Positions 12,213 through 61,022 of a stretch of 64,000 nt of DNA are shown in pieces (the first letter of the stretch is position 1; every line of letters starts with the position of its first letter). The position numbers and the translations under genes were made by a program. This DNA is from Myxococcota bacterium (GTDB lineage Bacteria > Myxococcota_A > Bradymonadia > UBA7976 > UBA1532), in the NCBI GenBank assembly GCA_963169045.1, contig CAUJDF010000105.1, forward strand, positions 9,086-73,085, in the 5' to 3' direction. Below the pieces are notes generated by a model that had not been told where the DNA came from, ran no database searches, and saw only the letters and a list, made by a program, of their open reading frames with translations.

Positions 12213-15200
12213 TCACTCCGCCCGGTTGATGGCCAGCGTGTAGCGCCGGCTTGCGCCGTAGCGGTCGTTGAACGTGCCGGCGCGCACGAAGTAGGTGCCG
12301 TCGGCGGGCGCGACCCACTCGATGAGGCTCGACGCGTCGCCGGGCGCACGATCGTCGTTGAAGTCGAGCGCCGTGGCGCCGTCGACGTCGAGCAGGGTGA
12401 GCGTCGAGTCGTCGCTGCCGGCGAGGTCCCGCGTCTCGATGACGTAGGTCTCGCCGGCGACGGCGTCGAACCGCACCCAGTCCTCGTCCTGGCAGTGACG
12501 CCGCGCCTGAGGCGCGCCGCCGACCTCGAACGGCCGCGCGTCGGCCGGCTCGTCGTCGTGCTCGAACTCGTCGTCCTGGCAGGTCGACCGCACGCCCACG
12601 GAGTAGCTCAGGTCGCCCGTCGCGCCGAGGAAGCTCGAGACGCGCACGTAGTAGATGCCCGCCGCCGGCGGCTGCCAGTTGGCGATGAGGCTCGCGAGGC
12701 CGTCGTCGCCGCCGTCGTCGTTGCTGGCCAGCTGGACGCCGTTCGCGTCGAACAACGTGAGGAGCGTGTCGGCGCCCGCGGACAGGTTGAACGTCTGCAC
12801 GTCGTACCGCGTCTGGCCGCCGGCGTTGAACCGGAACCAGTCCGCGCCGTCGTCGCAGAAATTCAGGCCGACGAAACGCCGGTTCACCTCGAGCGGCCGC
12901 GCGGCGTCGAGCGCGTCGTCCTCTTCGTTGGCGTCGGGCACGCAGGCGACGGGGGCCGGCTCGCATTCGCCCTCGACGCAGAGCTCGCCCTCGCCGCAGT
13001 CCTCGTCGGCGGCGCACGCCGGCGCGGCGACGCAGGCGCCCTCGACGCAGATCTCGCCCTCGCCACAGTCCTCGTCGCCGGCGCAGCCGACCGCGCAGGG
13101 CCCCGGCGTGACGTCGAGGACGTAGTCGCCCTCGCGCACGCCGCCGTCCGCCGGCGAGAAGCCGTCGACGAACACGAAGTAGACGATCCCGGGCTCGACC
13201 GACAGCGTCAGGGCCGACCGGAGCCCGCCCGCCGCGTCGTCGTCGTCGTTGCAGGCCGCCTCCGCCTCACGGCGGGCGCAGTCGGCGGCGCGGACGTAGA
13301 GCACGGTGTCGTAGGCGCTGCCCGCGAGGTTGAGGCAGATCTCGCCGCCCACGTCGAAGGCCATCGCGTACACGGCCTCGCCGCTCTGCGCGCCGCCGCC
13401 GCACGTGCCGCCGTGGACGCCGTCGCGGTCGGCGGTGGTGCCCTCGATCGCGCCGAAGGCCCCGATGAAGAAGGGCGCCTCGCACGTGCCGTCCGGCGCG
13501 GCGACGCACCGGCCCTCGGCGCAGACGTCGCCGGCGAGGCAGTCGTCGTCCGACTCGCAGCCGCAGCCTTCGACCTGCAGCTCGAGCGCGTAGGTGTTCT
13601 CGGCGTCGCGGAAGCCGTGCACGCGCACGTATAGCGGCCCGTCGACCGCCGCGCGCGCCCGGGCCTCCTCGAGGTCGCCCACGCCCGCCGAGCGGGCGAG
13701 CTCGGCGCCGGCGGCGTCGTGCAGCGCGAGGTCGAGGTCGCCGGTCGCGTGCGCGAAGATCGCGCGGGCGGTGAGCACGCCGCCGGCGCACACCTCGACG
13801 GCGAACCAGTCGTCGTCGCCGGCGCACACCGCCAGGCCCTCGGCGAGACCCGGCGCCGCCTCGGCGGCGGTCTCGAGCGTGTCGTTGTCCTCCGCGCCGT
13901 CGTCCTCGCAGGCGACGGGCGCGCAGCCGTCGACCGCCACGTTCAGGCCGTATGCGTTCTCCGCGCCGGCGAAGCCGTAGACGCGCACGAATACGACCGC
14001 GTCCGCCTCGGCGGCGTGCTCGACGCGCTCGTCGTCGTCCGAGGAGTCGGACGTGTCGAGCACGTCGCCGCCGGCGTCCAGCAGCTCGACGTCGAGGTCG
14101 CCGCCCGCGTGGGCGAACGTCACGTCGACCGCCACCGCGCCGCCCGCGCAGACGGCGACGGCGTACCAGTCCTCGTCGTCGGCGCACACGGCCAGGCCGC
14201 CGTACGCGCCGGGCGCGGCGGGGATCGCCGCTTCGAGCGCGTCGTTGTCCTCGGCGGCGTCGTCCTGGCAGACGGGCGCCGCGACGCAGGCGCCCTCGGC
14301 GCAGCGCTGCCCGGCGGGGCAGTCGTCGTCCGTCTCGCAGCCGCAGCCCGCGAGCTCGACCTCGAGCGCGTAGGTGTTCTCGGCGTCCTGGTAGCCGAAG
14401 ACGGCGATGTTCACCGTGCCCGCAGCCGGGGCGGCGTAGCGCGCCTCCTCGACGTCGCCGACGCCCCGCGACGCCGCGAGCTCCTCGCCCGCCGCATCGA
14501 CGAGCGCGAGGTCGACGTCGCCGTCGGCGTGCCGGAAGCGCGTGCGCACCGTGAGGACGCCGCCGGCGCAGACGTCCACCGCGTACCAGTCCTGGTCGCC
14601 GGCGCACACCGCCAGGCCGTCGCCGCGCCCCGGCACGATCGGCGTCGCCGTGTCCGGCCCGTCGTTGTCCTCGAGCGCGTCGTCGGCGCAGAAATCGGCG
14701 TCGCAGCCGTCCACCGCCACGTTGAGCGCGTAGGCGTTCTCGGCGCCGCCGAAGCCGTACACGGCGAGGGAGAGCCGCTGCGCCGCCGCGCTCGCGTAGA
14801 CGAGCCGCTCGCCGTCGTCCGCCGTCTCCGCCCGGACGAGCGGCGTCCCATCCCCGCCGAACAGCACCGCGTCGACGTCGCCGGCCGCGTGGGTGAAGGC
14901 CACGTCCACCGTGACCGTGCCGCCGGCGCAGACCTCGACCCCATACCAGTCGAGGTCGCCGGCGCAGACCTGCAGCCCCGCGTATGCGCCCGGCGCCAGC
15001 GCCCGCGCCGCCGCCGGATCGTCGTTCTCCTCGAGCGCGTCGTCCTCGCAGACCGGCCGGTCCACGCACGCGCCCTCGGCGCACACCTGGCCCGCCGGGC
15101 AGTCGCGGTCGTCGACGCAGCCGCAGCCGTCGAGCGTGATCTCGAGGTCATAGTCGTTCTGCGCGCCCTGGTAGCCATAGACGCGCACGTATGCCGTCGC

Positions 15201-18200
15201 CGCGGCCTCGGCGGAGACGCGGAGCGCCTCCTCGTCGCCGACGCCCTGCGAGATGTCGACCCGCGTCCCGTCGGCGTCGTGGATCGAGAGATCCAGGTCG
15301 CCGTCGGCGTGGGTGAACCTCGTCCGCACCGTGAGCACGCCGCCGGCGCACACGTCGACCGCGTACCAGTCGTCGTCCGCGCTGCAGATGGCGCGGCCCC
15401 GGTAGACGCCCGCCGGCACCGCCGCGGCGTTTTCGAGCGCGTCGTTCTCCTCGAGGTCGTCGTCGACGCAGACCGGCCCCTCGCAGCCTTCCACGGTCAC
15501 GTTCAGGTCGTAGGCGTTGACGGCCCCGCCGAAGCCGTACACGGCGAGGTACACGCGCTCGTCGGCGTCGGACGCGCGCTCGAGGCGCTCGGCGTCCGCG
15601 ACGGTGGCCGAGCGCACGAGGACGGTGCCGTCCGCCGCCAGCAGCGCCGCGTCGACGTCGCCGTCGGCGTGGGTGAAGGTCACGTCCACGGCGAGCGTGC
15701 CGCCCGCGCAGACATCGACCGCGAACAGGTCGAGGTCGCCGCTGCACACCTGGAGCCCCGGGTACGCGCCCGGGACGAGGTCGGCGGCGGTCTCGAGGAG
15801 GTCGTTGTCCTCGAACGCGTCGTCGACGCAGGCCGGCGGCGCGACGCACGCGCCGTCGGCGCAGATCTGGCCGGCCGGACAGTCGGCGTCCTCGGCGCAG
15901 CCGCAGCCGTCGAGCGCGATCTCGAGGTCGTACGCGTTCTCGGCGCCCCCGAAGCCGTAGACGCGCACGAGGACGGTGCCCGCGCCCTCGGCCTGGTGGC
16001 GCAGGCGCTCCTCGTCGCTCGTCGAGGCCGAGGTCATCAGCACCGCGCCCTCGGCGTCGACGAGCTGCACGTCGACGTCGCCCAGGTCGTGCTCGAAGCG
16101 GACGGTCGTCGTGAGCACGCCGCCGGCGCAGACGTCGACCGCGTACCAGTCCTCGTCGCCCGCGCAGATCGCCAGGCCGGCGGCCGCGCCGGGAAGCACC
16201 GGCAGCGCGGCGTCGATCGTGTCGTTGTCCTCGCCGAGGTCGTCGACGCAGACCGGGCCGGCGTCGCAGCCGTCGACCACCACGCCGAGGTCGTAGGCGC
16301 CCTCCGCGCCGCGGAAGCCGTACACGCGCACCCAGAGGCGGCGCGCCGACTGCGCCGCGAGCTCGACGCGCTCCTCGTCGCCGACGCCCTGCGAGCGGGC
16401 CAGCACCGCTCCGTCGTCGCCGTGCAGCGCCAGGTCGAGGTCGCCGTCGGCGTGCGTGAAGGCCAGCCCGACGGACAGCGTGCCGCCGGCGCAGACGTCG
16501 ACGACGTACCAGTCGTCGTCGCCCGCGCACACCTGCAGGCCCGCCACGTCGCCGGGCTCCGCCGGCGTGGCCGCTCCCGCCGCGTCGTTGTCTTCGAGCC
16601 CGTCGTCGACGCACGGCTCGGGGGCGACACACGCGCCCTCGACGCAGGCCTGGCCCGCCGGGCAGTCGCCGTCGACCTCGCAGCCGCAGTCGGCGACCTC
16701 GATCGCCAGCGAGTAGGTGTTGCCCAGGTCGCCGAAGCCGTACACGCGGACGAAGAGCTCGGCCTCGCCCTCCACCGGGATCTCGAGGGCCTCGACGTCC
16801 TCGAGCGAGTCGGAGGTGCCGAGCGCGTTGCCCTCCGCGTCGAACACCTGCAGGTCGATGTCGCCGTCGGCGTGCGCGAAGGCCGCCGTCACGCGCAGCG
16901 TGCCTCCGGCGCAGGCGCGCACGGCGTACCAGTCCTCGTCCGCCGGGCACAGCACGCGGTCCTCGAAGAGCGCGTCGCCGCCCACGGGGGTCGCCGTGGC
17001 CGGCGTGTCGTCGGCCTCGTGGTCGTCCTCGACGCAGACCGGCTCGTCGACGCAGCCCTCGATCGCGACGTCGAGGCCGTAGGTGGTGCCGGCGCCGCCG
17101 AAGCCGTACACCACGACGAAGACCTCCTCGGCCGCCACCGCGGTGTGCGCGAGGTGCTCGCCGTCGTCGGTGCCCTCGCTGGTCGCGAGCTCGCCGCCGC
17201 GCGCGTCGAGGAGCGCGGCGTCCAGGTCGCCGTCGGCGTGGGTGAAGCGGACGTCCACCGTCAGCGTGCCGCCGGCGCAGAGCGCCACGCGGAAGCCGTC
17301 CACGTCGCCGGCGCAGATGCGCAGGTCGTCGATCGAGCCCGCCTCGAGGGGGGTGGCCGAGCCGGCGTCGTCGTTGTCCTCGAAGGCGTCGTCCTCGCAG
17401 GCCGGCACGTCGACGACGCAGGCGCCGTCGACGCAGACCTCGCCCGCGGCGCAGTCGAGGTCCTCGGCGCACGGCGCGACGCAGCCGTCGACGTCCACGT
17501 CGATCGCATAGGCGTTGTGCGCCCCCCGGAAGCCGTACACCCGCAGGAGGACGGTCTCGGGGCCCGCCGGCGCGTAGGACACCTGCTCGCCGTCCTGCGA
17601 CGAGTTGCTCGTGTCGAGCGTGTCGCCCGCGGCGTCGAGCAGCTCGACGTCGAGGTCGCCGTCGTCGTGCTCGAAGGCCAGGGCGACGGTCAGCGTGCCG
17701 CCGGCGCAGACGTCGATGGCGAACCAGTCCTCGTCGTCGGCGCAGACCTGCAGGTCGTCGCGCGCGCCGGTTCCGAGGGGCGCGGCGCCGCCGGCCGCAT
17801 CGTTGTCCTCGAAGGCGTCGTCGAGGCAGCCGACGGGCTCGCAGGCGCCGGCGACGCAGACCTCGCCGGCGTCGCAGTCCGCATCCTCGACGCAGGCCGG
17901 GGCGCCCTCGCAGGCGCCGGCGACGCAGACCTCGCCGGCGGCGCAGTCGGCGTCGTCGAGGCAGCCGACGGGCTCGCAGACGCCGGCGACGCAGACCTCG
18001 CCGGCGGCGCAGTCGGCGTCCTCGACGCAGGCCGGGGCGCCCTCGCAGGCGCCCGCGACGCAGCGCTCGCCGGCGGCGCAGTCCGCATCCTCGACGCAGG
18101 CCGGGGCGTCCTCGCAGGCGCCCGCGACGCAGCGCTCGCCGGCGGCGCAGTCCGCATCCTCGACGCAGGCCGGCTCGGCCACGCACGCGGAGTCCACGCA

Positions 18201-18842
18201 GCGCTCGTCGGCAGCGCAGTCCTCGTCGCCCGCGCAGCAACCCGCCGGCAGCTCGGCGTCGCACACGGTGCGCGTGCCGCTCTGGTCGCACGCGGTGGTG
18301 CCCTGCGCGGCGCACGCGCCCTCGCCGCGCGTGCACGGCTCGCCGAGGCCGAGGAACTCCTCGTCCGTCGACCCGTCGCAGTCGTCGTCGAGGCCGTTGC
18401 ACTCCTCGGCCGGCGCGGCGCACGGGCCAAAGGCCCCCCCGGCGCAGGTCTGCACCGAGCCCGGGCATGCGGCCTCTTCCCCGGGGCACGGCCGCGTCTG
18501 TCCGTCCTCGCAGTCGGCGCCCTGGTCGGGGTCGATCGCACCGTCGCGCGCCCCGCCGTCAGGCGGGCTCGCGTCGCCGCGCGCCGCGTCGGGACCGCCG
18601 CCGCCGTCGCGCGCCCCGCCGTCGGGCGGGCTCGCGTCGCCGCGCGCCGCGTCGGGACCGCCCCCGCCGTCGCCCGGACGCGCATCATCGCCGGGCGTGC
18701 TCGCGTCGCGCACCGGACCGACGCCACCGTCGTCGTCCCCGCCGCCGCTCGCCGCCGTGCCGCCGTCGGCGCACGCCGCGAGCGCTGACGCGAGCGTCAG
18801 CGCCCACCAGGCGCGGCGTCCCTTCACACTGCCGTTCGTCAT
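12213..18842 (-). CDS. Giant lipoprotein (2209 aa) with about 12 tandem pre-peptidase C-terminal (PPC) domains. They are separated by Cys-rich CVEDADCAAGE[RV]CVAGACE linkers, and an N-terminal Myxo Cys-rich repeat is also present.
   Basis: MTNGSVKGRRAWWALTLASALAAC has a lipobox. The repeated unit is DDAFEDND...ICAGDEDWYAVDVCAGGTLTV..FTHADGDLDL.L.DA.G..L..S....DEE.L...A......YVRVYGFGGA.N.YDL.V..DGC. DNA-level tandem repeats of about 450 bp run across 12.7-18.0 kb. Confidence 0.85.
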   Translation of the reverse strand: MTNGSVKGRRAWWALTLASALAACADGGTAASGGGDDDGGVGPVRDASTPGDDARPGDGGGGPDAARGDASPPDGGARDGGGGPDAARGDASPPDGGARDGAIDPDQGADCEDGQTRPCPGEEAACPGSVQTCAGGAFGPCAAPAEECNGLDDDCDGSTDEEFLGLGEPCTRGEGACAAQGTTACDQSGTRTVCDAELPAGCCAGDEDCAADERCVDSACVAEPACVEDADCAAGERCVAGACEDAPACVEDADCAAGERCVAGACEGAPACVEDADCAAGEVCVAGVCEPVGCLDDADCAAGEVCVAGACEGAPACVEDADCDAGEVCVAGACEPVGCLDDAFEDNDAAGGAAPLGTGARDDLQVCADDEDWFAIDVCAGGTLTVALAFEHDDGDLDVELLDAAGDTLDTSNSSQDGEQVSYAPAGPETVLLRVYGFRGAHNAYAIDVDVDGCVAPCAEDLDCAAGEVCVDGACVVDVPACEDDAFEDNDDAGSATPLEAGSIDDLRICAGDVDGFRVALCAGGTLTVDVRFTHADGDLDAALLDARGGELATSEGTDDGEHLAHTAVAAEEVFVVVYGFGGAGTTYGLDVAIEGCVDEPVCVEDDHEADDTPATATPVGGDALFEDRVLCPADEDWYAVRACAGGTLRVTAAFAHADGDIDLQVFDAEGNALGTSDSLEDVEALEIPVEGEAELFVRVYGFGDLGNTYSLAIEVADCGCEVDGDCPAGQACVEGACVAPEPCVDDGLEDNDAAGAATPAEPGDVAGLQVCAGDDDWYVVDVCAGGTLSVGLAFTHADGDLDLALHGDDGAVLARSQGVGDEERVELAAQSARRLWVRVYGFRGAEGAYDLGVVVDGCDAGPVCVDDLGEDNDTIDAALPVLPGAAAGLAICAGDEDWYAVDVCAGGVLTTTVRFEHDLGDVDVQLVDAEGAVLMTSASTSDEERLRHQAEGAGTVLVRVYGFGGAENAYDLEIALDGCGCAEDADCPAGQICADGACVAPPACVDDAFEDNDLLETAADLVPGAYPGLQVCSGDLDLFAVDVCAGGTLAVDVTFTHADGDVDAALLAADGTVLVRSATVADAERLERASDADERVYLAVYGFGGAVNAYDLNVTVEGCEGPVCVDDDLEENDALENAAAVPAGVYRGRAICSADDDWYAVDVCAGGVLTVRTRFTHADGDLDLSIHDADGTRVDISQGVGDEEALRVSAEAAATAYVRVYGYQGAQNDYDLEITLDGCGCVDDRDCPAGQVCAEGACVDRPVCEDDALEENDDPAAARALAPGAYAGLQVCAGDLDWYGVEVCAGGTVTVDVAFTHAAGDVDAVLFGGDGTPLVRAETADDGERLVYASAAAQRLSLAVYGFGGAENAYALNVAVDGCDADFCADDALEDNDGPDTATPIVPGRGDGLAVCAGDQDWYAVDVCAGGVLTVRTRFRHADGDVDLALVDAAGEELAASRGVGDVEEARYAAPAAGTVNIAVFGYQDAENTYALEVELAGCGCETDDDCPAGQRCAEGACVAAPVCQDDAAEDNDALEAAIPAAPGAYGGLAVCADDEDWYAVAVCAGGAVAVDVTFAHAGGDLDVELLDAGGDVLDTSDSSDDDERVEHAAEADAVVFVRVYGFAGAENAYGLNVAVDGCAPVACEDDGAEDNDTLETAAEAAPGLAEGLAVCAGDDDWFAVEVCAGGVLTARAIFAHATGDLDLALHDAAGAELARSAGVGDLEEARARAAVDGPLYVRVHGFRDAENTYALELQVEGCGCESDDDCLAGDVCAEGRCVAAPDGTCEAPFFIGAFGAIEGTTADRDGVHGGTCGGGAQSGEAVYAMAFDVGGEICLNLAGSAYDTVLYVRAADCARREAEAACNDDDDAAGGLRSALTLSVEPGIVYFVFVDGFSPADGGVREGDYVLDVTPGPCAVGCAGDEDCGEGEICVEGACVAAPACAADEDCGEGELCVEGECEPAPVACVPDANEEDDALDAARPLEVNRRFVGLNFCDDGADWFRFNAGGQTRYDVQTFNLSAGADTLLTLFDANGVQLASNDDGGDDGLASLIANWQPPAAGIYYVRVSSFLGATGDLSYSVGVRSTCQDDEFEHDDEPADARPFEVGGAPQARRHCQDEDWVRFDAVAGETYVIETRDLAGSDDSTLTLLDVDGATALDFNDDRAPGDASSLIEWVAPADGTYFVRAGTFNDRYGASRRYTLAINRAE

Positions 18843-19102
18843 GGACCGCTCCCCCGAGAATCGCTGGTGTTCCGGTTTCGGCGCGCATCGGAAGCCCCGG
18901 GCCGCGAAAACATCAAGCGAAAAGCGACCGTCGCATCTGTATTCGACCGCGCTGCTCCGTCCGGGCGCCCCGGCGGTGCGGGCCGCGCCCCGCCGGCATC
19001 CCATCGCTCCGAAGCGCGCAGCCGGCGGCGCCGAGCGTGGGCCGGCGGGGGGTCAGGGAGACATCCCATGGGCGTCGGCGGCTCCCTCCTTGAAGCGCGC
19101 CG

Positions 19103-23002
<3,900 letters not shown>

Positions 23003-23093
23003 CGGGCGCAGTGTACCGCCAAGGTGGCGTTCGGTCGGCGCGCCGGTCCACGATGGGAGACCGGCGGAGGGCGACCCGCCGCCAGGGAGGCGC

Positions 23094-23684
23094 ATGAAGG
23101 CTCCGCACTACGGCCCCTTCGCCCCGGTCTTCGAGAGCGGCGAGCTCGACGTGCCCGGACACGTCTGCCTGCTGAACCTCGGCCACGAGTCGCACGCCCG
23201 GACGGTGATCGGGCGCGTGCGCGACGCGCTGGCCGCCGAGGAGCCGGGGCCATGGGTCGAGCGCATGCTCGGCCAGCCCAACTGGCGCCCGCACCTCGTC
23301 GCGGCGGTGGCGTACCTGGCGGACGACGCCCGCCGGCTGGCGATCGAGCCGCTGTGGCGGCGGCTCGAGGACGGCTCGTGGGTCAGCCCGCAGCTGGCGG
23401 TCGCCGCGTTCTTCGTGGATCCGGCGTTCCCGGAGCGCTTCCGGGCGCGGCCGCTCCCCGCGAACGCGAAGACGGTGGCGGCCCTCATCGGCGCCGCGTC
23501 GCTGGCAGACGAGCTGGCGGCGGAGGCCGCGCGGGCGCGCCACGAGCCGGAGATCGCGCCCCTGCTCGCGAAGGATGCCTCCTTTGACCGGAGCGATGAC
23601 ATCGTCCGGTCCTGGGCCGCCGCGATCGCCGCGCGCTTCGCCGAGCTCGGTCTGCCCCTGCAGCGGCGTTGGGCGGGGCCGTGA
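23094..23684 (+). CDS. Hypothetical cytoplasmic protein, 196 aa, divergent from the Topo III-RecQ gene.
   Basis: An ATG with SD GGGAGG 6 nt upstream, and GC3-rich codons. I recognise no domain. Confidence 0.55.
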   Translation: MKAPHYGPFAPVFESGELDVPGHVCLLNLGHESHARTVIGRVRDALAAEEPGPWVERMLGQPNWRPHLVAAVAYLADDARRLAIEPLWRRLEDGSWVSPQLAVAAFFVDPAFPERFRARPLPANAKTVAALIGAASLADELAAEAARARHEPEIAPLLAKDASFDRSDDIVRSWAAAIAARFAELGLPLQRRWAGP

Positions 23685-23763: not shown

Positions 23764-25002
23764 ATGGGTGTGTCTTCTCGGCGTCTCGCGGTGTGGACCG
23801 GCGGCGCCCTGGTCTTCTGGATGGCGTCCGGCTGCGGCGAGACGTCGAGGGAAGCGGCAGACGGCGCGCCGTCCGCCGACGCGCGGACGGTGGACGGCGG
23901 CGCCGCGGCGTCGGACGCGGACCGCGGCGACGACGCGGCGCGCGCAGCCGACGCCGGCGCCATGGTCCCCGCCGACGGGGCCACGACGAGCGACGCGGCG
24001 CCCGCGGCCGACGCGGCGCCCGAGCCCGACGCGGCGCCCGCGTCCGACGCGGCGCCCGAGCCCGACGCGGCGCCGGCGGCGGACGGCGGCCCCGCGCCGC
24101 CGCCCTGCGAGCTCGGACCGGACGCGCCGCTTGTCCTGCTCTACGCCTCCGTAGGCGGCGACGACAACCTGCGCTTCCTGCACGACGACTGCGCCGCCGA
24201 GGTCGTCGTCGGCGAGAAGCGCGCCGCCGGACCGCGCAGCGTCATGAAGCGCCCCGCGGCGCGCGCGATGGGCGGCCGCACCGGCTTCGTCTCCGATCTG
24301 TTCGGCCGCCGCATCGCCGAGGCCCTGCGCCGCGAGGACGGCGTGCAGCGCACGGCGGCGGAGTTCCGGGCCATCCTCGACGCCGGCTACGACTACATCA
24401 TCATCGACGAGATCACCGCCGCCGCCGACTGGGCCGACGGCGCCCTCGTCAACCAGCGCTTCCGCCGCCTGCTCGAGGTCCTGCCGCCGCGGAAGGTCAT
24501 CGCCTACGTCAGCCTGGATCTGACGATGGCGGCCGACGGCGGCGCGCGCATGAACGACCGCCGGCAGCTGTTGTATGCGCTGCTGCAGCGCGGGCGCGCC
24601 ATCGCGCTCGAGGTGTATCTGCACACGGGGCAGGTGCGTGCCGGCCAGGCGCCCGACGCGCTCCGGCGCGCCGCCGTCCGCCTGCGCAACGCGGTGCTCG
24701 ACCTGCCCGGCGGCGGGCACGTCAACCGGCGCGCGATCACCGTGCTCGGTCTGTCGATGCACGAGCCTTCGCCCTACGACTACCTCGACGATCCGCGCCA
24801 CGACCTCGCCGCGGTCCGCACCCAGGCGCGCACGCTGCGCACGTTCGGCGCGCTGCTGCCGGAGCAGCGCGGCATCGGCTACTACTTCGTGAGCCATTCC
24901 GACATCGTGCCCGCCGCGGGCGCGCCCTATGACTTCGACGATCTGATCGACGTCATCGCCGAGGAGGCACACCTCTCGGCGCTGGCGGCTGGCGGGGAGT
25001 GA
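23764..25002 (+). CDS. Lipoprotein with a Asp/Ala/Pro-rich linker, hypothetical, 412 aa.
   Basis: LVFWMASGC has a lipobox. The linker (DAAPEPDAAPASDAAPEPDAAPAAD) comes from 24-bp DNA repeats at about 23990-24080. SD GAGGG precedes it. Confidence 0.7.
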   Translation: MGVSSRRLAVWTGGALVFWMASGCGETSREAADGAPSADARTVDGGAAASDADRGDDAARAADAGAMVPADGATTSDAAPAADAAPEPDAAPASDAAPEPDAAPAADGGPAPPPCELGPDAPLVLLYASVGGDDNLRFLHDDCAAEVVVGEKRAAGPRSVMKRPAARAMGGRTGFVSDLFGRRIAEALRREDGVQRTAAEFRAILDAGYDYIIIDEITAAADWADGALVNQRFRRLLEVLPPRKVIAYVSLDLTMAADGGARMNDRRQLLYALLQRGRAIALEVYLHTGQVRAGQAPDALRRAAVRLRNAVLDLPGGGHVNRRAITVLGLSMHEPSPYDYLDDPRHDLAAVRTQARTLRTFGALLPEQRGIGYYFVSHSDIVPAAGAPYDFDDLIDVIAEEAHLSALAAGGE

Positions 25003-25007
25003 CGACG

Positions 25008-28000
25008 ATGGGAAGCGGCCTTCGAAGAGCGTCGGTCGTCTGCGCGGTGGTGGTCTCGGCCGGCACGGCGGGCGCCACGCCCGAGTTCGTGAACCACGTC
25101 CGCCTGTTCGAAGTGACGCAGCCCGGCGGCCTCGTGCGCAGCGTGCCGGCCGTGGAGATGTCGCGGACCGCCGCCGAGTTCTACGACTACCGCAGCGCAT
25201 CGAGCCACACCGGCTTCGAGCGGGCGCGGCGCTCGCTCCTCTTCTTGCACCGCGATCTGCGCGACGACCGGCTGAGCCTCGTGATCACCCATGGCATCGA
25301 CGGCATGGGTCAGCCGGCGGCGGAGCGACAGCCGACCGCCCGCGTCGACTTCGACCTCGAGGGGGTGCCGCCCGGCGCGGTCGTCGCCGCCGCCGACGAC
25401 GACGCCGGCGAGCTCCAACTCGGGCGCGATCCCGAGGGCCGATGGGACTTCGCCGACAACACGGACGGCGGTGTGATCGCCGGCCTGCCGATCGACGCCG
25501 ACTGGGCGATCACCATCGCGGCGCAGTTCATCACCGGCATCGACGCGTGGGCCTACCACTTCGCCGATGGCACCAGCGTCGAGCTCGATCTCGCGCAGCC
25601 GGTGACGATCCGGTCGCGCGGCGCGTCGGTGCGCGACGGCGAGATCCGCAGCGACGAGGGCACGCCCATCACGCTGTGCGTCCTCGCGACCGACGCCCGC
25701 GCCGACGTGGACCTCCTCTTCTATGCCATCGACTGGGCCGACGGCAGCGTGCCGACGCGCGACACCGCGCCCCCGGGGACGCTCCACTGCGCCGAGCACA
25801 CCTACGCCGACGACGCGCGGTATGCCATCCGCGTGACCGCGGGCAACGCGTTCAACGAGGAGGCGGCCAAAGAGGTGCCGGCCCTCATCGCCAACGTCGT
25901 GCCGACGGTGGCGGCCGGCGGGCCGTACGACGGCGACGAGGGCGAAGCGGTGCTGCTGCGCGCGTCGCTCGTGGCCGATCCCGGCGCGGGCGACACGCAC
26001 CGCGTGCGTTGGGACTTCGACGCCGACGGCGTCTGGGACACCGCGCTCGACGACGCGCTCGCCGTCGAGCACCGCTTCCCGAACGACGGCGTGCATCGCG
26101 TGCGGGTGGAGATGCGGGACGACGACGACGGGGCCGGCACGGCGGAGACCGTGGTGACCGTCCGCAACCTGCCGCCCGCGTTCACGAGCGCGCCCCCGCT
26201 CACCGTGCACGTCGGACACACGTGGAGCTATGCGCCCACCGCGGCGGATCCCGGGGGCGACCCCGTGACCTTCGCCGTGCTCGACGCGCCCGCAGGTGTC
26301 GCGCTCGAAGACGGCGTCGTCCGTTGGACGCCCGCCGCGGTCGACGTCGGCGAGCACGCCTTCCAGCTCGTCGCGCTCGACGACGCGGACGGCGCCGCCG
26401 CGCAGGACGTGACGATCACCGTGCTCCCGAACGAGCCTCCGACGCCGGCGATCGAGCCCGCGCAGCCCGACGTCGGCGAGGGCGACCGGCTGGTCGTCGA
26501 CTCGTCGTCCACCCTCGATCCGGAGGGCGACGCGCTGACGTTCGCGTGGGCGTGCGAGGGCGGCCTGCCGATCGAGGCGGACGGCGCGCGCCTCGCCGTC
26601 GACGCCGCCGCGCTCGACGGGCCCGCCGAGCCCGCGGCGTTCCCGTGCCGGCTGACCGTCGACGACGGCACGAACGCGCCGGTCGTCGTGCCCTTCACGG
26701 TGCGTGTGCACAACGTCACGCCGGTCGTCGAGGCGGTCGAGGTCGTCGGCGCGGCGGAGGGGGCGCCCGCCGTGGTGCGCTTCCTCGCCGGCGACGCCGC
26801 CGCGGCCGACACCTTCACCTACGGCGTCGACTGCGACGACGACGGCACGCTCGATGTCATCGACGCCGACACGCCGGATCTGACGTGCACGTTCGCCGAC
26901 AGCGGCGAACACACGGTGACGGTGGTGGTCACCGACGACGACGGCGCTTCGGGCTCGGCGCGCAGTCTGCCGTTCGTGGTGGCCAACCGACCGCCCGTGA
27001 TCGAGGCGCCCGACTGTCCACCGGCGATCGAAGGCATCCCGCTCGCGCTGCCGGTGCACGTCTCCGATCCGGCCGGCGCGCGCGACACGGTCCGCTGCTC
27101 GCTGGCCGATCCGGTCCCCGAGGGGGTGGACGTCGACGCGGACCTCTGCGACGTGCGCTGGGTGCCGACCTACGCGCAGGCCGTCGCCGGCTCGGTCGTC
27201 TTCGAGTTCCGCGCCGCCGACGAGGACGGCGGGACGGCGGCGCTGCGCCTCGCGTGTCCGGTGCGCTACCTCGACGAGGACGGCGACGGCCTGCCCGACA
27301 CCTGGGCCGGCGACCACGGCCTGGCCGGCGGGTGCGACGACGACCCGGACGGTGACGGCCGGACCAACTGCGAGGAGTTCGACGGCGGCACCGATCCCAA
27401 CGCCTTCGAGGGCCCCGAAGCGCCGGTCCCCGTGGCGCCCGCGGACGGCGCCGTCGTCGACACCGCCACGCCGTCGCTCGTGGTGCGCGGCGGCGACGAC
27501 CCCTTCGGCCGGCCGCTGTCGTACGAGTACACCGTCTCCGCCGACGCCGACGGCGCCCGGACGGTCGTCACGTCGGACCTCGTGCCCGAGACGCCCGACG
27601 AGACGGCCTGGACGCTGCCCGCGGCGACGCTCGAGGAGGGGGCGACGTACTGGTGGTCGGCGCGCGCCCACGCCGGGCGCGCCTTCGGTCCCCCGTCGGC
27701 GCGGGTCGCGTTCACGGTCGACGCGGTGGACGAGGCGCCCTCCACGCCGACCATCCGGCGCCCCGAGGACGGCGATCGCGTGGCCGAGCGCGCGCCGTCG
27801 CTGGTCGTCGACGGCGCGGTGGACCCGGATCCCGACGACGCGCTGCGCTACGCGTGCGAGGTGGCGACCGACGCCGCCTTCGCCGACGTGGTGCGCGCGC
27901 CCGCCGGCGCCGGCACGCCCGCGACGCTGCCGATCGAGCCAGAGCTCGATGAAAACACGCGGTATTTCGCGCGCTGCCGCGCCGTCGACGCCGCGGGCAA

Positions 28001-28913
28001 CACGAGCGACTGGTCGGCGGTCGTCGGCTTCACCATCGACACCGGCAACGACGCGCCCTCGGCCCCGACGATCATCGCCCCCGAACACCGCGCCGTCGTC
28101 GGGACGCCCGAGGTCACGCTGGTCGCCGGCGCGGCGGACGACCCGGATGGCGATCCGCTGACGTACGCGTTCTGGGTGAGCGACGATCCCACGTTCCCGC
28201 CGGCGCGGACGCGCGCCTCCGACGAGCTGCCGGCCGCGGACGACGGGCGGGTGACCTGGACGGTGCCCGACGCGCTCCCCGACGAGACGCTGTGGTTCTG
28301 GCGGGTACGCGCGCGCGACGCCGACGCCGCCGGTCCCTTCGCCACGGCGCGCTTCCGCGTCGATCTCGGGAACGCCGCGCCCAGCGCGCCCGTTCCGCTC
28401 GAACCGGCGGCGGGCGCGACGGCGGGGGCGGCGCCGCGCTTCGTGTGGCAGGCGGCGACGGACCCCGAGGGCGAGGCGCTGACCTACCGCGTCGAGCTGT
28501 TCGCCGCGGGCGAGGCGGCCCCCATCTGGTCGACGGAGACGGGCGAGCTGACGGCCGGCCACCCGGGTGGTCTGTCGCCGGGTCCCCATGCCTGGCGCGT
28601 GCGGGCGACGGACGCCTCGGGCGCCGCCTCCGGCTGGTCGGCCGACACGCCGTTCGCCGTCGCCGGGCCGGCCGACGCGGGCCTCGATCCCGACGCGGGC
28701 GCCGCGGCGGATGCCATGCCCGACGCGGCGGCCGATGCGGCGTCCGACGCGGCGGCCGATGCGGCGTCCGATGCCACGTCAGACCCGCTCTCGGGGACCG
28801 GCGATGCGGCCGGCGCCGCCGCCGACGGGTGCGACTGCGACGCCGCCGGCGGCGCCGGCCCGTTCCCGCTCCTGCTGCTCGCGCTGCTCGGCGTCGCCCG
28901 CCGGCGCCGGTGA
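25008..28913 (+). CDS. Large secreted surface protein (1301 aa) with PKD-like, cadherin-like/Ig-like and fibronectin-III-like repeats and a C-terminal MYXO-CTERM sorting signal.
   Basis: Signal peptide MGSGLRRASVVCAVVVSAGTAGA. Repeated DPDGDPLTY / DPEGEALTY motifs. The C-terminus GCDCDAAGGAGPFPLLLLALLGVARRRR is a Cys motif plus TM plus Arg cluster, i.e. MYXO-CTERM. Confidence 0.8.
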   Translation: MGSGLRRASVVCAVVVSAGTAGATPEFVNHVRLFEVTQPGGLVRSVPAVEMSRTAAEFYDYRSASSHTGFERARRSLLFLHRDLRDDRLSLVITHGIDGMGQPAAERQPTARVDFDLEGVPPGAVVAAADDDAGELQLGRDPEGRWDFADNTDGGVIAGLPIDADWAITIAAQFITGIDAWAYHFADGTSVELDLAQPVTIRSRGASVRDGEIRSDEGTPITLCVLATDARADVDLLFYAIDWADGSVPTRDTAPPGTLHCAEHTYADDARYAIRVTAGNAFNEEAAKEVPALIANVVPTVAAGGPYDGDEGEAVLLRASLVADPGAGDTHRVRWDFDADGVWDTALDDALAVEHRFPNDGVHRVRVEMRDDDDGAGTAETVVTVRNLPPAFTSAPPLTVHVGHTWSYAPTAADPGGDPVTFAVLDAPAGVALEDGVVRWTPAAVDVGEHAFQLVALDDADGAAAQDVTITVLPNEPPTPAIEPAQPDVGEGDRLVVDSSSTLDPEGDALTFAWACEGGLPIEADGARLAVDAAALDGPAEPAAFPCRLTVDDGTNAPVVVPFTVRVHNVTPVVEAVEVVGAAEGAPAVVRFLAGDAAAADTFTYGVDCDDDGTLDVIDADTPDLTCTFADSGEHTVTVVVTDDDGASGSARSLPFVVANRPPVIEAPDCPPAIEGIPLALPVHVSDPAGARDTVRCSLADPVPEGVDVDADLCDVRWVPTYAQAVAGSVVFEFRAADEDGGTAALRLACPVRYLDEDGDGLPDTWAGDHGLAGGCDDDPDGDGRTNCEEFDGGTDPNAFEGPEAPVPVAPADGAVVDTATPSLVVRGGDDPFGRPLSYEYTVSADADGARTVVTSDLVPETPDETAWTLPAATLEEGATYWWSARAHAGRAFGPPSARVAFTVDAVDEAPSTPTIRRPEDGDRVAERAPSLVVDGAVDPDPDDALRYACEVATDAAFADVVRAPAGAGTPATLPIEPELDENTRYFARCRAVDAAGNTSDWSAVVGFTIDTGNDAPSAPTIIAPEHRAVVGTPEVTLVAGAADDPDGDPLTYAFWVSDDPTFPPARTRASDELPAADDGRVTWTVPDALPDETLWFWRVRARDADAAGPFATARFRVDLGNAAPSAPVPLEPAAGATAGAAPRFVWQAATDPEGEALTYRVELFAAGEAAPIWSTETGELTAGHPGGLSPGPHAWRVRATDASGAASGWSADTPFAVAGPADAGLDPDAGAAADAMPDAAADAASDAAADAASDATSDPLSGTGDAAGAAADGCDCDAAGGAGPFPLLLLALLGVARRRR

Positions 28914-30703: not shown

Positions 30704-31969
30704 CTAGTCGCAGACGTCGTCGAAGTTGCAACTGCCGGAGCAGCAGTCGCTCGAGAAGTCGCAGCTGTCGCCGGAGGAGATGCAGTCGTCACCGCCGCCG
30801 CCTTCGCCCCCCGAGCCGCCCGAGCCGCCGCCGGCGCCGCCGCCCGAGCCGCCGCCGTCCCCACCGGAACCGCCGCCGCCGCCGCCCTGACCGCCGCTGC
30901 CGCCCTGACCGCCGCCGCCGTTCGTGCAGAGGCCCCACTCGCGGTGGACGCAGATCTTGGCGTGGTTGCCGCTGTCGCCGAGCACGTCGGCGCAGACCCA
31001 GTTGCCGTCCTGGCTGCACGGATCACCGACGTCGGTGTTGCGCAGGCTGCTGCACATGAGCGTGCAGACGCACTCGCCGTTGCCGAAGTTGATGAACGTG
31101 CCGTCGCCGCAGTTCGTGGGCGCGCGGCCGTTGCATTCGTGGCCCATGCGGCCTTCGCCGCTCACGACGGCGTTCTGGCCGAGCGTGAAGTCGCCGTAGC
31201 ACTGATTGCCGCCGCCGCCGCCCGGGCCGCCGCCGCCGGCGCCGCCGCCCTGGCCGCCGCCGGCGCCGCCGCCCTGGCCGCCACCGGCGCCGCCGCCCTG
31301 GCCGCCGCCGGCGCCGCCGCCCTGGCCGCCGCCGGCGCCGCCGCCGAAGCCGCCACCGGCGCCGCCGCCCTGGCCGCCGCCGGCGCCGCCGCCCTGGCCG
31401 CCACCGGCGCCGCCGCCCTGGCCGCCACCGCCGCCGCCCTGCACGGCGACGCACTCGCCGGCCGCCTGGCCACCGCCGTCGCCGCCGTCGCCGCGGCCGG
31501 GACCGCCGCCACCGCCCGCGCCGCCGGCGCCGCCGCCCTGGCCGCCACCGGCGCCGCCGCCGAAGCCGCCACCGGCGCCGCCGCCAGCGCCGCCGCCGAA
31601 GCCGCCGCCGGCGCCGCCGCCGAAGCCGCCACCGGCGCCGCCACCCTCGCCGCCGAAGCCGCCGCCGGCGCCGCCGCCCTCGCCGCCGAAGCCGCCTTCG
31701 CCGCCGCTGCCGCCCGCGCCCCCGCCGCACTGCGCCGCGCACACCTCGGCACACTGCGGGAAGCCCGTCTGCTCGCACTCGGCGATGCACTGGGCCTCGC
31801 AGTCTCCGTTCTGCGCGGAGCGGAGGTTCGCGACGGAGCACCGAAAGCCCTGACCGCAGTCGCTGTTGTCGTTGCAGGGCTCACCGCCGCCACCGCCACC
31901 CCCGCCGCCGCAGGAGAGGGCCGTGAGCGCCACGGACAGGGACAGGAAACGCACGTATCTCGTCTGCAT
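30704..31969 (-). CDS. Lipoprotein with a very long Gly-rich low-complexity core ((GGGAGGGQ/F)n) flanked by Cys-rich N- and C-terminal modules, 421 aa.
   Basis: MQTRYVRFLSLSVALTALSCGG has a lipobox. 24-bp tandem DNA repeats (ggcgccgccgccctggccgccgcc) lie at about 31200-31700. Confidence 0.75.
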   Translation of the reverse strand: MQTRYVRFLSLSVALTALSCGGGGGGGGGEPCNDNSDCGQGFRCSVANLRSAQNGDCEAQCIAECEQTGFPQCAEVCAAQCGGGAGGSGGEGGFGGEGGGAGGGFGGEGGGAGGGFGGGAGGGFGGGAGGGAGGGFGGGAGGGQGGGAGGAGGGGGPGRGDGGDGGGQAAGECVAVQGGGGGGQGGGAGGGQGGGAGGGQGGGAGGGFGGGAGGGQGGGAGGGQGGGAGGGQGGGAGGGQGGGAGGGGPGGGGGNQCYGDFTLGQNAVVSGEGRMGHECNGRAPTNCGDGTFINFGNGECVCTLMCSSLRNTDVGDPCSQDGNWVCADVLGDSGNHAKICVHREWGLCTNGGGGQGGSGGQGGGGGGSGGDGGGSGGGAGGGSGGSGGEGGGGDDCISSGDSCDFSSDCCSGSCNFDDVCD

Positions 31970-32014
31970 GGGTCACCCCGGGTCGATGTGTGTCTCGTGA
32001 GTTGGCGGGGGCGC

Positions 32015-56301: not shown

Positions 56302-56366
56302 CCCGCCCGTCCGCTTGACACCCACGAGACATGCCATGCACCTTGCCCGCGCGGGGGAGGTGAGCG

Positions 56367-58295
56367 ATGCGTTCGTCGGGGTGGGTCCTGCCGTGGTGGT
56401 TCGTGCTCGTGGCGTGCGGCGAGGAAGGCGGCGGCGCGCGCCCCGTCGGTGAGGGCGACTGCCGGCAGGCGGAGCTGGCGTGCGCCGACGGGTTCCGGTG
56501 CCGGGCCGACGCGGACGGCCGCTGGGGCTGCGCGCCCGACGAGCGGGGCGGCGGCGACGACGGGAGCGCGACGCCGCCCGACGCGCACGTCGCCGGCGAC
56601 GCAGGGGCCGCCGGCGACGCAGGGGCCGCCGACGCGCGGGTCGCCGGCGACGCCGCCGCGCCCGACGCGAGCGGCGGCGACGCATCCGCGCCGGGCCGCG
56701 GTCCCGCCGAGGCCTGCGGCGCCGACGAGCAGTGCGCCAGCGGCGAGTGCGGGGCGGCGCCCGACGGCTACTGCGTCCTGACCTGCGACGACGACGTCGC
56801 GTGCGCCCGCGGCACGGTCTGCGGACGCGGGCCCGACGGGCGCCGCGTCTGCCTCGTCCCCTGCGCCGGCAGCGCGCAGTGCCGCAAGGGCTGGGTCTGC
56901 CTCGCGAGCAGCGACGGCGCCAACACGTGCCAGCCGAGCTGCGTCGAGGTGGGCTGCCCCGCCGGCCGCGCGTGCGAAGCCGCGACGGGCGCGTGCGTCG
57001 ACGCCGGCTGCCAGCCGCGTCCCGAGCGGTGCGACGGCCGGGACGACGACTGCGACGGGGTCGCCGACGAGGGCGTGTCGAACGCGTGCGGCACCTGCGG
57101 CGACGTCCCCGAGGAGCGGTGCAATGGCACCGACGACGACTGCGACGGCGCGATCGACGAGGGCGTGGTCAACGCGTGCGGCGCCTGCGGCGACGTCGCC
57201 GACGAGCGCTGCAACGACGAGGACGACGACTGCGACGGCGCGATCGACGAGGGGGTGACGAACGCGTGCGGCGCGTGCGGCGCCACGCCCCGCGAGCAGT
57301 GCAACGGCGAGGACGACGACTGCGACGGCGAAGTCGACGAGGGGGTGACGAACGCGTGCGGCGCGTGCGGTCCCGTGCCCCGCGAGGTCTGCAACCGGCG
57401 CGACGACGACTGCGACGGGCTCGTCGACGACGACGCGACGTGCCCGGCCGGCGAGCGCTGCGAGCGCGGGGCGTGCGTGCCCCGCTCGGGCCCCGCGGGC
57501 GCCTGCCGCGAGGACGCCGACTGCCTCGCCGGCAGCTGCCTGCCCGACGTCCCCGGCGGCTTCTGCGCCGTCGACTGCCGCGAAGACGGGGACTGCGGCG
57601 ACGCGGGCTGTTTCGACCTGGGCGGCGGACAGACGACGTGCCTCGAGCTGTGCGCGGTCGACGCGGACTGCAGGCAGTCGTGGATATGCGCGTGGGTCGG
57701 CGCCTGCGTGCCGCACTGCGAGGTGTCGGGCTGCGACGACGGGTTCGTCTGCACGGCCGCGGGCACCTGCGAGGTGCCCGTCTACACGGTCCGCCTCGGC
57801 ACCGTGACCCTTCGCCCTTACATCGACGCCGACCGCACGAACTGGGACGGCTTCGGCAGCGCGACCGCCGACACCGTCCAGCGCGTCACCGGCGCGCTGC
57901 TCGGCCCCGATCCCTACCTGGCGCTCGTGAACGTCATCGCGAGGCTGGCGATCGACGCGACGGCCGCGCCCGACGCCTTCGGCCAGGCCTCGCTGACGCT
58001 CGACGGCGCGCTCGTCCGCGCCGTGCCGCTGTGGGTGATCGACAACGAGTACCGCCCGTTCTGGGGCAACGTCGTCTGGCAGGGGGTGCCGCTGCAGCCC
58101 GGCGCGGACCTGCGCCTCGAGCTGAACCTGACCGACGAGGACGCCGCCTTCGACGACTCGATCGGCCGCGTCGTCGTCGGCACCGAGGACCTGCGCGACG
58201 CCGCTTTCGCCGGCGAGCCCTGGCCGGTCGACACGAGCGCCCAGGGCAGCCGGAACATCCTGTTCGTCGAGGTGGAGTTGATCCCCGAGAACTGA
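56367..58295 (+). CDS. Lipoprotein with five tandem Myxococcus-type cysteine-rich repeats (CxxCxxDDDCDGxxDEGVxNACGxCG) and a C-terminal beta-rich domain.
   Basis: MRSSGWVLPWWFVLVACGEEGG has a lipobox. The repeats lie at about 57000-57450. Confidence 0.8.
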   Translation: MRSSGWVLPWWFVLVACGEEGGGARPVGEGDCRQAELACADGFRCRADADGRWGCAPDERGGGDDGSATPPDAHVAGDAGAAGDAGAADARVAGDAAAPDASGGDASAPGRGPAEACGADEQCASGECGAAPDGYCVLTCDDDVACARGTVCGRGPDGRRVCLVPCAGSAQCRKGWVCLASSDGANTCQPSCVEVGCPAGRACEAATGACVDAGCQPRPERCDGRDDDCDGVADEGVSNACGTCGDVPEERCNGTDDDCDGAIDEGVVNACGACGDVADERCNDEDDDCDGAIDEGVTNACGACGATPREQCNGEDDDCDGEVDEGVTNACGACGPVPREVCNRRDDDCDGLVDDDATCPAGERCERGACVPRSGPAGACREDADCLAGSCLPDVPGGFCAVDCREDGDCGDAGCFDLGGGQTTCLELCAVDADCRQSWICAWVGACVPHCEVSGCDDGFVCTAAGTCEVPVYTVRLGTVTLRPYIDADRTNWDGFGSATADTVQRVTGALLGPDPYLALVNVIARLAIDATAAPDAFGQASLTLDGALVRAVPLWVIDNEYRPFWGNVVWQGVPLQPGADLRLELNLTDEDAAFDDSIGRVVVGTEDLRDAAFAGEPWPVDTSAQGSRNILFVEVELIPEN

Positions 58296-60994: not shown

Positions 60995-61022
60995 GCGGCG
61001 AGTGTAGCCACACGCCGTGCGT

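Follow-up and report, generated by a model that had tools for sequence, protein, structure and literature searches.

The 64-kb window analysed here, i.e. a stretch of 64,000 nucleotides from a Myxococcota bacterium (contig CAUJDF010000105.1 of assembly GCA_963169045.1; all coordinates are counted from the first letter of the window), carries on its minus strand a gene for a giant lipoprotein-type precursor of 2209 amino acids (aa). This protein combines 14 modules of the PPC (pre-peptidase C-terminal) fold, namely eleven of a 116-aa subtype, one divergent and two canonical ones, with 14 small Cys-rich linker units. With moderate confidence, and based on family membership as well as predicted fold, we propose for it the non-enzymatic role of a multivalent adhesin or matrix-binding protein, which would be anchored to the cell surface and stabilised by Ca2+ and disulfides. 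The gene and the parts of its product, from the N-terminus to the C-terminus, are the following.

12213..18842, minus strand: coding sequence of the 2209-aa lipoprotein precursor, 6.6 kb, with the stop codon at 12213..12215 (from the list of open reading frames, ORFs)
18771..18842, minus strand: signal peptide and lipobox L-A-A-C, aa 1-24, in which Cys24 would be lipidated (from the translation)
18483..18770, minus strand: low-complexity acidic Gly/Asp/Pro tether, aa 25-120, with a 21-aa duplication inside (from the translation)
18240..18482, minus strand: Cys-rich N-terminal region, aa 121-201, with a weak MopE-like CNGxDDDCDG motif (PF11617, below cut-off)
17829..18239, minus strand: six tandem 4-Cys linker units of the Myxo_Cys_RPT / DUF7107 type, aa 202-338 (pattern matches)
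17481..17828, minus strand: PPC-type module M1, aa 339-454 (module mapping)
inside 17400..17480, minus strand: single Cys linker after M1, aa 458-475 (pattern match)
13491..17399, minus strand: five super-repeats of about 260 aa (780 bp) holding modules M2-M11, with boundaries at 16614-17399, 15831-16613, 15051-15830, 14271-15050 and 13491-14270 (direct repeats, alignment)
13095..13484, minus strand: divergent Cys-rich PPC-fold domain, aa 1787-1916 (profile, AlphaFold2, Foldseek)
12963..13085, minus strand: two further 4-Cys linkers, aa 1920-1960, with the best DUF7107 stretch of the protein (pattern)
12216..12962, minus strand: two canonical C-terminal PPC domains, aa 1961-2086 and 2087-2209 (PF04151)

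The assignment to the PPC family rests on strong profile matches. In the whole protein, PF04151 scores 204.9 bits (cut-off 25.9) over 10 stretches, the best of which covers aa 2119-2187, and the C-terminal pair alone reaches 69 bits with two stretches. The linkers are recognized both by DUF7107 (PF23416; 59 bits with a cut-off of 24.6, six stretches) and by Myxo_Cys_RPT (NCBIfam TIGR04201; 51 bits with a cut-off of 25, nine stretches), and all 14 units fit the pattern C-x(2-4)-D-x(1-2)-C-x(2-3)-[GDE]-x(1-3)-C-x(2-4)-C. PPC domains and a Myxo Cys-repeat had already been noticed in a first-pass annotation made from the letters of the DNA alone, and its further statement that a catalytic domain is missing agrees with our Pfam and NCBIfam scans, which found no catalytic family in the protein and left no part of its length unaccounted for. 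The peptidase context that gave the PPC family its name is therefore absent here, but this context is not required for membership of the domain family.

The modules are arranged in a more intricate manner than the first-pass annotation had suggested, which spoke of about 12 modules of about 150 aa alternating with Cys-linkers. Eleven modules of 116 aa (in one case 117 aa) fill aa 339-1760, while the linkers form a row of six near the N-terminus, a single one separates M1 from M2, each module pair is followed by one, and the C-terminal pair is preceded by two. The true unit of the body thus comprises two modules and a single linker in 260 aa: a module A, a connector of 4-5 aa, a module B ending with GCGC and one 4-Cys linker. 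The linker sequence given in that annotation, CVEDADCAAGERCVAGAC, is found exactly at two positions (aa 226-243 and aa 249-266).

At the other end of the precursor, the N-terminal sequence MTNGSVKGRRAWWALTLASALAAC contains L-A-A-C, in agreement with the lipobox reported for the 2209-aa lipoprotein with its start at ATG 18842. The signal MTNGSVKGRRAWWALTLASALAA-C24 shows the features expected by signal peptidase II, i.e. a positively charged n-region, a hydrophobic core and a lipobox of the pattern [LVI][ASTVI][GAS]C among the first 35 or so residues. The protein thus reads as a lipoprotein-type precursor, with both its lipidation and its location being predicted. Other assignments for its ends were tried and rejected. 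A match to the sorting domain of the type IX secretion system (TIGR04183 / PF18962; 23.1 bits with a cut-off of 23, aa 2018-2069) lies within a PPC domain and ends 140 residues short of the C-terminus, which we read as cross-matching between β-sandwich domains. Similarly, a MYXO-CTERM-type anchor does not apply, as the C-terminus is a PPC domain (ending with RYTLAINRAE) that lacks a terminal hydrophobic segment, and the NCBIfam scan gave no match to an anchor of this type. Near the N-terminus, membership of the MopE-type motif family PF11617 failed as well (18 bits with a cut-off of 27, E 0.0034, aa 145-161). The tripeptide RGD occurs twice in the duplicated 21-aa segment of the tether (aa 67-69 and 88-90), probably by chance.

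Structure prediction points to the same family. An AlphaFold2 model of one unit consisting of modules A and B and the linker (predicted local distance difference test, pLDDT, 85.6) contains two 8-stranded β-sandwiches and a small hairpin linker, and its best Foldseek match is the tandem collagen-binding domain of ColG in its Ca2+-bound form (5IKU, E 5e-17), with both domains aligned. A single module superimposes on the PPC domain of a Bacillus anthracis collagenase (5SV5) with a template modelling (TM) score of 0.76 and a root-mean-square deviation of 2.2 Å in Foldseek, and over both models the top matches are 5IKU, 5SV5 (TM 0.76-0.77) and 1NQJ. Independently of the models, a profile of the eleven modules finds as its best PDB entries ColG s3a-s3b (5IKU, E 2e-4) and ColH (3JQW, E 6e-3) over the full length of the module. 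By contrast with these profile and fold searches, from which all links to solved structures come, phmmer searches of PDB sequences with the whole protein or the two-module unit gave nothing useful. On the basis of these models, the modules are predicted to adopt the β-sandwich fold of PPC and collagen-binding domains.

This prediction extends to the middle domain at aa 1787-1916, for which no Pfam match was obtained. Its profile matches 2LUW (E 2e-4), which was deposited as a metalloprotease and which we take to be a PPC domain, and its AlphaFold2 model (pLDDT 90.5) is matched in Foldseek by 5SV5 and the ColG collagen-binding domain 3b; a PPC fold is thus modelled for this domain too. Its approximately 130 aa carry the motifs GxSCGG, DTVLYVR, CNDD and FVDGF. 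In other giant proteins from metagenome-assembled genomes of Myxococcota (P0009, P0012, P0023, P0026 and others), this divergent domain forms arrays of its own, with 7-12 copies alternating with DUF7107 linkers, and it may represent an uncurated domain family.

What the modules have kept in common is informative with respect to how they may be stabilised. For this comparison 82 modules were used, i.e. the eleven found here and 71 from six other proteins, with an overall identity of about 50%. Common to every 116-aa module are four Cys, at positions 1, 29, 41 and 116, and an acidic cluster (D4, E7, N9, D10, D32 and D34); these residues, along with D58, D60, D79, E81 and Y107, are invariant in the eleven modules and are found in at least 90% of the 71 others. 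Such a pattern of conserved acidic and Cys residues amid about 50% identity would be expected from disulfides and structural Ca2+ sites, and the four Cys of a module probably form two disulfides. In the profile alignment, E7, N9, D10 and D34, including the E-x-N-D segment, fall on ColG residues that form its double Ca2+ site, and Y98/F100 align with Y-K-Y of ColG, a hot spot for collagen binding and part of the collagen-binding face.

The mature protein is also of unusual composition, with an isoelectric point (pI) of about 4, 21% Asp plus Glu, a net charge of about -371, not a single Lys in 2185 residues and 5.6% Cys (123 Cys in total). One might thus ask whether it simply serves as a sink for cations, i.e. 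takes up Ca2+ or other metals in bulk on the outside of the cell and so serves in buffering, in biomineralisation or in the capture of metals. Besides this charge, the acidic cluster in each of the eleven modules, the weak MopE-type metal-binding motif and the presence of the copper-binding surface protein CorA among the distant fold matches of the middle domain (rank 43) would be in line with such a role. However, the Ca2+ site of the collagen-binding domain with which the acidic cluster aligns is taken to be structural and not one for storage, the MopE match does not reach its cut-off, and a low Lys content and acidity are common to other secreted proteins encoded in the window, so that the charge in part reflects a general property of this genome and its secretome. 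We therefore regard a cation sink or a nucleator of minerals as a very improbable function.

The adhesin or matrix-binding function is suggested by what PPC domains do elsewhere, in particular in secreted proteases, where they bind insoluble substrates. In clostridial and Grimontia collagenases, PPC domains bind insoluble or triple-helical collagen (PMC6168687), and a fragment of Myxococcus xanthus FibA with two PPC domains is found in the extracellular matrix and in the spore cuticula, as a dominant protein of both (PMC3236237). If the protein described here acts along similar lines, its precursor would be exported and lipidated at Cys24, and the lipid would anchor it to a membrane, with the protein probably facing outwards. 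The tether of about 100 acidic Gly/Pro/Asp residues and a stalk of six 4-Cys knots would hold out the 14 PPC-fold modules, with the eleven of the 116-aa subtype following each other as pairs, then the divergent domain and, at the far end, the two canonical PPC domains. Within each module the four invariant Cys would be joined in two disulfides, and Ca2+ bound at the acidic cluster would stiffen the module as well as its junction. The product would be a long, very acidic, Lys-free and protease-resistant fibre, which displays many copies of a PPC-type binding face and could bind to an insoluble polymer, be it a protein fibre, a polysaccharide or the surface of prey or particles.

The FibA precedent can also be read in a different way. 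The protein or its fragments might be structural building blocks that self-assemble into a surface layer, an extracellular matrix or the coat of a spore or cyst, as suggested by the dominance of the FibA PPC-pair fragment in the spore cuticula and extracellular matrix of M. xanthus (PMC3236237), by the extremely acidic, Cys-rich and Lys-free composition and by the several other large acidic secreted repeat proteins encoded in the window. We consider this rather unlikely, since a lipobox anchor and a long tether would suit a tethered fibre better than a lattice, and no coat or matrix genes adjoin the locus.

Another alternative starts from proteases, in which cleavage usually removes the PPC domains and in which these domains influence localisation, activity or stability (PMC3236237). 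The protein could thus be a precursor or partner of secreted proteases, which is either cut at its linkers into free PPC units or docks or regulates separate proteases, and two homologues indeed fuse PPC arrays to an M4 peptidase or a P-domain (P_proprotein, PF01483; P0017 and P0016). Yet no peptidase domain was found in the protein or among the neighbouring ORFs scanned, and with its disulfide-knotted linkers and its lack of Lys the protein seems made to resist cleavage rather than to undergo it, which makes a role of this kind improbable.

A multivalent adhesin or matrix-binding protein remains the reading we prefer, and several points have to be set against it. Ligand, localisation, lipidation, Ca2+ binding and disulfide pairing are all inferred from the sequence and the predicted fold. 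The two-module model has a predicted TM score (pTM) of only 0.51, which makes the orientation of the modules towards each other unreliable, and the geometry of a rigid rod is a proposal at the level of the model. A single internal module, searched alone, scores 22.5 bits and thus stays below the PF04151 cut-off of 25.9, for which reason we treat the internal modules as a divergent subtype. D32 is off the ligand pattern of ColG by one position (DxD here, DxxD in ColG). In the signal peptide, Arg-Arg in the n-region would be compatible with export by the Tat as well as the Sec pathway, with Sec being favoured because of the 123 cysteines. Finally, the loci of homologues have no conserved neighbour gene, i.e. 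none that they share with the locus described here or with each other; their flanks encode an AI-2E transporter, an AAA ATPase, a VWA protein or a polyphosphate kinase.

The repeats themselves turned out to be far more diverged than expected. At the DNA level, the spacing of copies alternates between 360 and 420 bp, and families of direct repeats spaced by 780 bp are present as well, i.e. the super-repeat, in place of the repeat of about 450 bp mentioned in the first-pass annotation. The five super-repeat units align at 51-58% identity, and the division into A and B modules is the best of all 252 possible 5/5 partitions (53.8% identity within a type and 49.2% across types). Any two modules are 38-65% identical as protein (mean 51%) and 61-74% as DNA (mean 67%), which is far from the near-identity previously claimed; the longest exact word common to two modules is 27 nt, and Tandem Repeats Finder did not detect the module array. 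Moreover, proteins of other species contain modules that match a given module about as well as its best partner inside the protein does (47-65%). The duplications must therefore be old, with no recent homogenisation, and a recent expansion or concerted evolution of the modules is rejected. The array may have been lengthened long ago by duplication of the 260-aa unit of two modules and a linker, and would now be stable.

This divergence also bears on whether the array can be trusted. Homologous recombination generally needs tens of bases of perfect identity. With exact identity being so short, the PPC array is a poor substrate for it and an implausible site of assembly collapse, contrary to the earlier view that the repeats are recombinogenic and a likely source of collapse. 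An exact repeat of 64 nt in the linker array is the longest that the gene contains, and the repeats at risk are only the following two.

17838..18222, minus strand: 69-bp DNA array under the six N-terminal linkers, 5.6 copies, 87% matches (Tandem Repeats Finder)
18541..18673, minus strand: 63-bp tandem repeat in the tether, 2.1 copies, 97% matches (Tandem Repeats Finder)

That the array as a whole is an artefact, be it through the collapse or expansion of a repeat or through a chimeric ORF, is hardly credible. The assembly is of the metagenome type and these two short arrays are nearly identical (69 bp in 5.6 copies and 63 bp in 2.1 copies), but with at most 27 nt shared exactly between PPC modules, ordinary k-mer sizes resolve them, the frame is intact across 6.6 kb with a GC content of 0.97 at third codon positions (GC3), and the same layout with 9-21 modules is found in independent assemblies. 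In practice, long-read confirmation is needed only for the approximately 0.5 kb of linker and tether repeats, and the PPC array is no assembly hazard.

The gene at 12213..18842 (minus strand) is real. Its GC content by codon position (0.78/0.52/0.97) is as expected for genuine genes of this genome with 75% GC, a value that holds throughout the window, and the identical 2209-aa protein is carried without a name in NCBI-derived data (P0001). Read from its first ATG, the ORF would have its longest form (12213..19004, minus strand) and encode 2263 aa. For the 2209-aa form, ATG 18842 is the credible start because it combines a lipoprotein signal with a Shine-Dalgarno-like sequence at a spacing of 6 nt and an AT-richer stretch upstream (18856..19102), i.e. 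the intergenic gap to the next gene, which encodes a topoisomerase-RecQ fusion.

18849..18855, minus strand: Shine-Dalgarno-like GGGGGAG, 6 nt before ATG 18842 (read from the sequence)

A scan for promoters and terminators yielded no promoter-like sites and two terminator-like sites on the wrong strand, which is uninformative in GC-rich DNA.

On the opposite strand, the gene is accompanied by a very long open frame, which the first-pass annotation had rightly dismissed as a gene and had attributed to the repeats.

13719..18788, plus strand: 1689-aa antisense open frame, not a gene (ORF list; GC mirror)

While the frame exists and is not a gene, the repeats are not its cause. Its GC content by codon position (0.97/0.52/0.80) mirrors that of the sense gene. 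Antisense position 1 faces sense position 3, which is rarely A (only 23 of 2210 sense codons end with A), and stops, which start with T, therefore scarcely arise; there are only two in this antisense frame over the whole gene. When the codons of the sense gene were shuffled, which destroys the repeats and keeps codon usage, antisense open runs were still 1355 ± 312 codons long compared with the 1717 observed, and 16% of the shuffles reached the observed run. Of the nine non-repetitive neighbouring genes tested, most behave in the same way: antisense open frames cover 100% of seven of them, 97% of one and 51% of another (58814-61060). The 64-kb window contains as many as 107 stop-free frames of at least 300 codons, and most of the real genes tested (GC3 >0.9) have a full-length antisense shadow, often with a second shadow on the same strand. 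Thus, the antisense ORF is a shadow of the codon bias in GC3 and not a product of the repeats. Neither this 1689-aa ORF nor the dozens like it in the window should be annotated as genes; for gene calling in this window the length of an ORF is useless, whereas GC content by codon position cleanly separates the frames. Altogether, three specific claims about the array have to be abandoned, i.e. the near-identity of its modules, the recombination and assembly risk of the PPC array and the repeats as the origin of the antisense ORF.

The genes around the locus are unrelated to it. Upstream, on the same strand and after a gap of 260 nt, lies the topoisomerase-RecQ fusion gene, and a gene for a TrkA-type K+ channel follows downstream in convergent orientation. 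In the single 1334-aa ORF of this fusion (19103..23107, minus strand), aa 39-630 are those of a type IA topoisomerase (Toprim and Topoisom_bac, 369 bits) and aa 681-1328 those of a complete RecQ helicase with DEAD, Helicase_C, RecQ_Zn_bind and HRDC, which unites the 'dissolvasome' pair of Topo III and RecQ in one chain. A literature search gave no paper that describes a natural topoisomerase-RecQ fusion. The window is also rich in genes for large acidic proteins of a secreted type. These include a large, acidic and almost Lys-free secreted-type protein of 1326 aa with PKD/Ig repeats (24933..28913, plus strand) and a similarly acidic and almost Lys-free protein of 643 aa with 9.2% Cys and a MopE motif above cut-off (56364..58295, plus strand). 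Furthermore, a frame of 422 codons (30704..31972, minus strand), with a gene-like GC3 of 0.92, encodes a protein with 44% Gly, 6.4% Cys and a pI of about 4, whose only match is a borderline one at its C-terminus to the small cystine-knot toxin family PF06357 (22.4 bits with a cut-off of 22).

The closest relatives of the lipoprotein are proteins of uncultured Myxococcota that are recorded as 'hypothetical protein', as 'Cys-rich repeat protein' or as 'PPC domain-containing protein'. Outside this genome, identity to the lipoprotein is only 39-46% in the best homologue and 46% in the best locus among GTDB species representatives. The pair-plus-linker layout recurs in relatives with 21 modules and three weaker ones (P0002), 13 modules (P0003, MBU0552206.1), 11 modules (P0004), at least 10 modules (L001) and 9 modules each (L002 and L003). 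At a larger scale, a search of 1.84 billion cluster representatives with the module profile returned 13,684 at E <=1e-3 and 1765, the multi-copy representatives, at E <=1e-30; the largest array found has 55 copies in a protein of 6725 aa. Enzyme-free PPC arrays are common in uncultured Myxococcota and Planctomycetota, and with 1765 multi-copy representatives the protein described here is an ordinary member of a large class. We found no experimental study of this class of multi-PPC arrays in the literature, and the biochemistry of a single A-B unit would inform on thousands of 'hypothetical' giant proteins. Beyond Myxococcota, relatives of the module include several from Planctomycetota as well as one from 'Candidatus Harpocratesius repetitus' (L020, JAIZWK010000001.1), which we take to be an Asgard archaeon. 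The only entry among the relatives listed that is not a metagenome-assembled genome is the complete genome of Saltatorellus ferox strain Poly30 (L079); a cultured strain could be an experimental entry point.

Among known systems, the collagen-binding domains of the clostridial collagenases ColG and ColH (5IKU, 1NQD/1NQJ, 3JQW) come closest in structure, with the same β-sandwich fold and a tandem pairing, and the E-x-N-D and D-x-D-aromatic segments of the modules align with the segments that form the Ca2+ site of ColG. The differences are nevertheless substantial. Identity is only about 16%, ColG has one or two modules compared with 14 here, and the lipoprotein contains neither a collagenase nor any other catalytic module. 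Four invariant Cys per module and disulfide-knot linkers, both present here, do not occur in ColG, which is moreover freely secreted, whereas the protein described here is predicted to be lipid-anchored. Secreted proteases of Gram-negative bacteria (M4 vibriolysin-type proteases, S8 subtilases and M. xanthus FibA) share the same Pfam PPC family and are likewise extracellular proteins that bind to insoluble substrates or matrix (PMC6168687, PMC3236237). In these, one or two PPC domains follow the peptidase and are often cleaved off; here, PPC modules form the whole protein. Giant multi-PPC or 'Cys-rich repeat' proteins from metagenome-assembled genomes of Myxococcota, Planctomycetota and others (e.g. 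P0002, P0003, P0004 and P0123) have the same 116-aa module with four Cys. P0002, P0003, P0004 and L001-L003 also share the pair-plus-linker layout and lipobox-type N-termini; such N-termini are exemplified in the homologues by LSAC in P0002 and LAGC in P0018. Module number varies between 9 and 21 in these relatives as compared with 11 here, and they share only part of the C-terminal set made up of the divergent domain, two linkers and the two canonical PPC domains.

A comparison with animal CUB-EGF-CUB proteins (C1r/C1s, MASP-2, PCPE-1) is one of analogy only. These also combine Ca2+-binding β-sandwiches with disulfide-knotted modules, cubilin being another modular protein of the CUB-EGF type, and in Foldseek CUB pairs and CUB-EGF-CUB structures rank directly behind ColG (E 1e-10 to 1e-8). 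There is, however, no detectable sequence relationship, TM is only about 0.25-0.3 over the pair, and the linker is a 4-Cys unit of 18-20 residues and not an EGF domain. It is tempting to extend this analogy and to speculate that the protein is a bacterial counterpart of the CUB-EGF or cadherin-like Ca2+-dependent matrix proteins of animals, i.e. a lipid-anchored, Ca2+-switched and extensible fibre, but the idea is an improbable one. If it were true, such fibres could contribute to cell-cell cohesion or prey capture in marine Myxococcota and other array-rich bacteria, and the ligand would be bound by the A-B pair in the manner of the tandem collagen-binding domain of ColG.

In its overall architecture, the multivalent adhesin proposed here resembles the giant repeat adhesins of Gram-negative bacteria that are rigidified by Ca2+, of the LapA, SiiE and MpIBP type. 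These are likewise long surface chains of tandem β-sandwiches with acidic, Ca2+-type sites at the junctions, and their binding domains are distal, as is proposed for the lipoprotein. They are exported by type I secretion, have RTX-type C-termini and consist of near-identical repeats of BIg-type folds (bacterial immunoglobulin-like) that contain no Cys. In contrast, the lipoprotein starts with a lipobox, its modules are of the PPC fold, its repeats have diverged and it contains 123 Cys.

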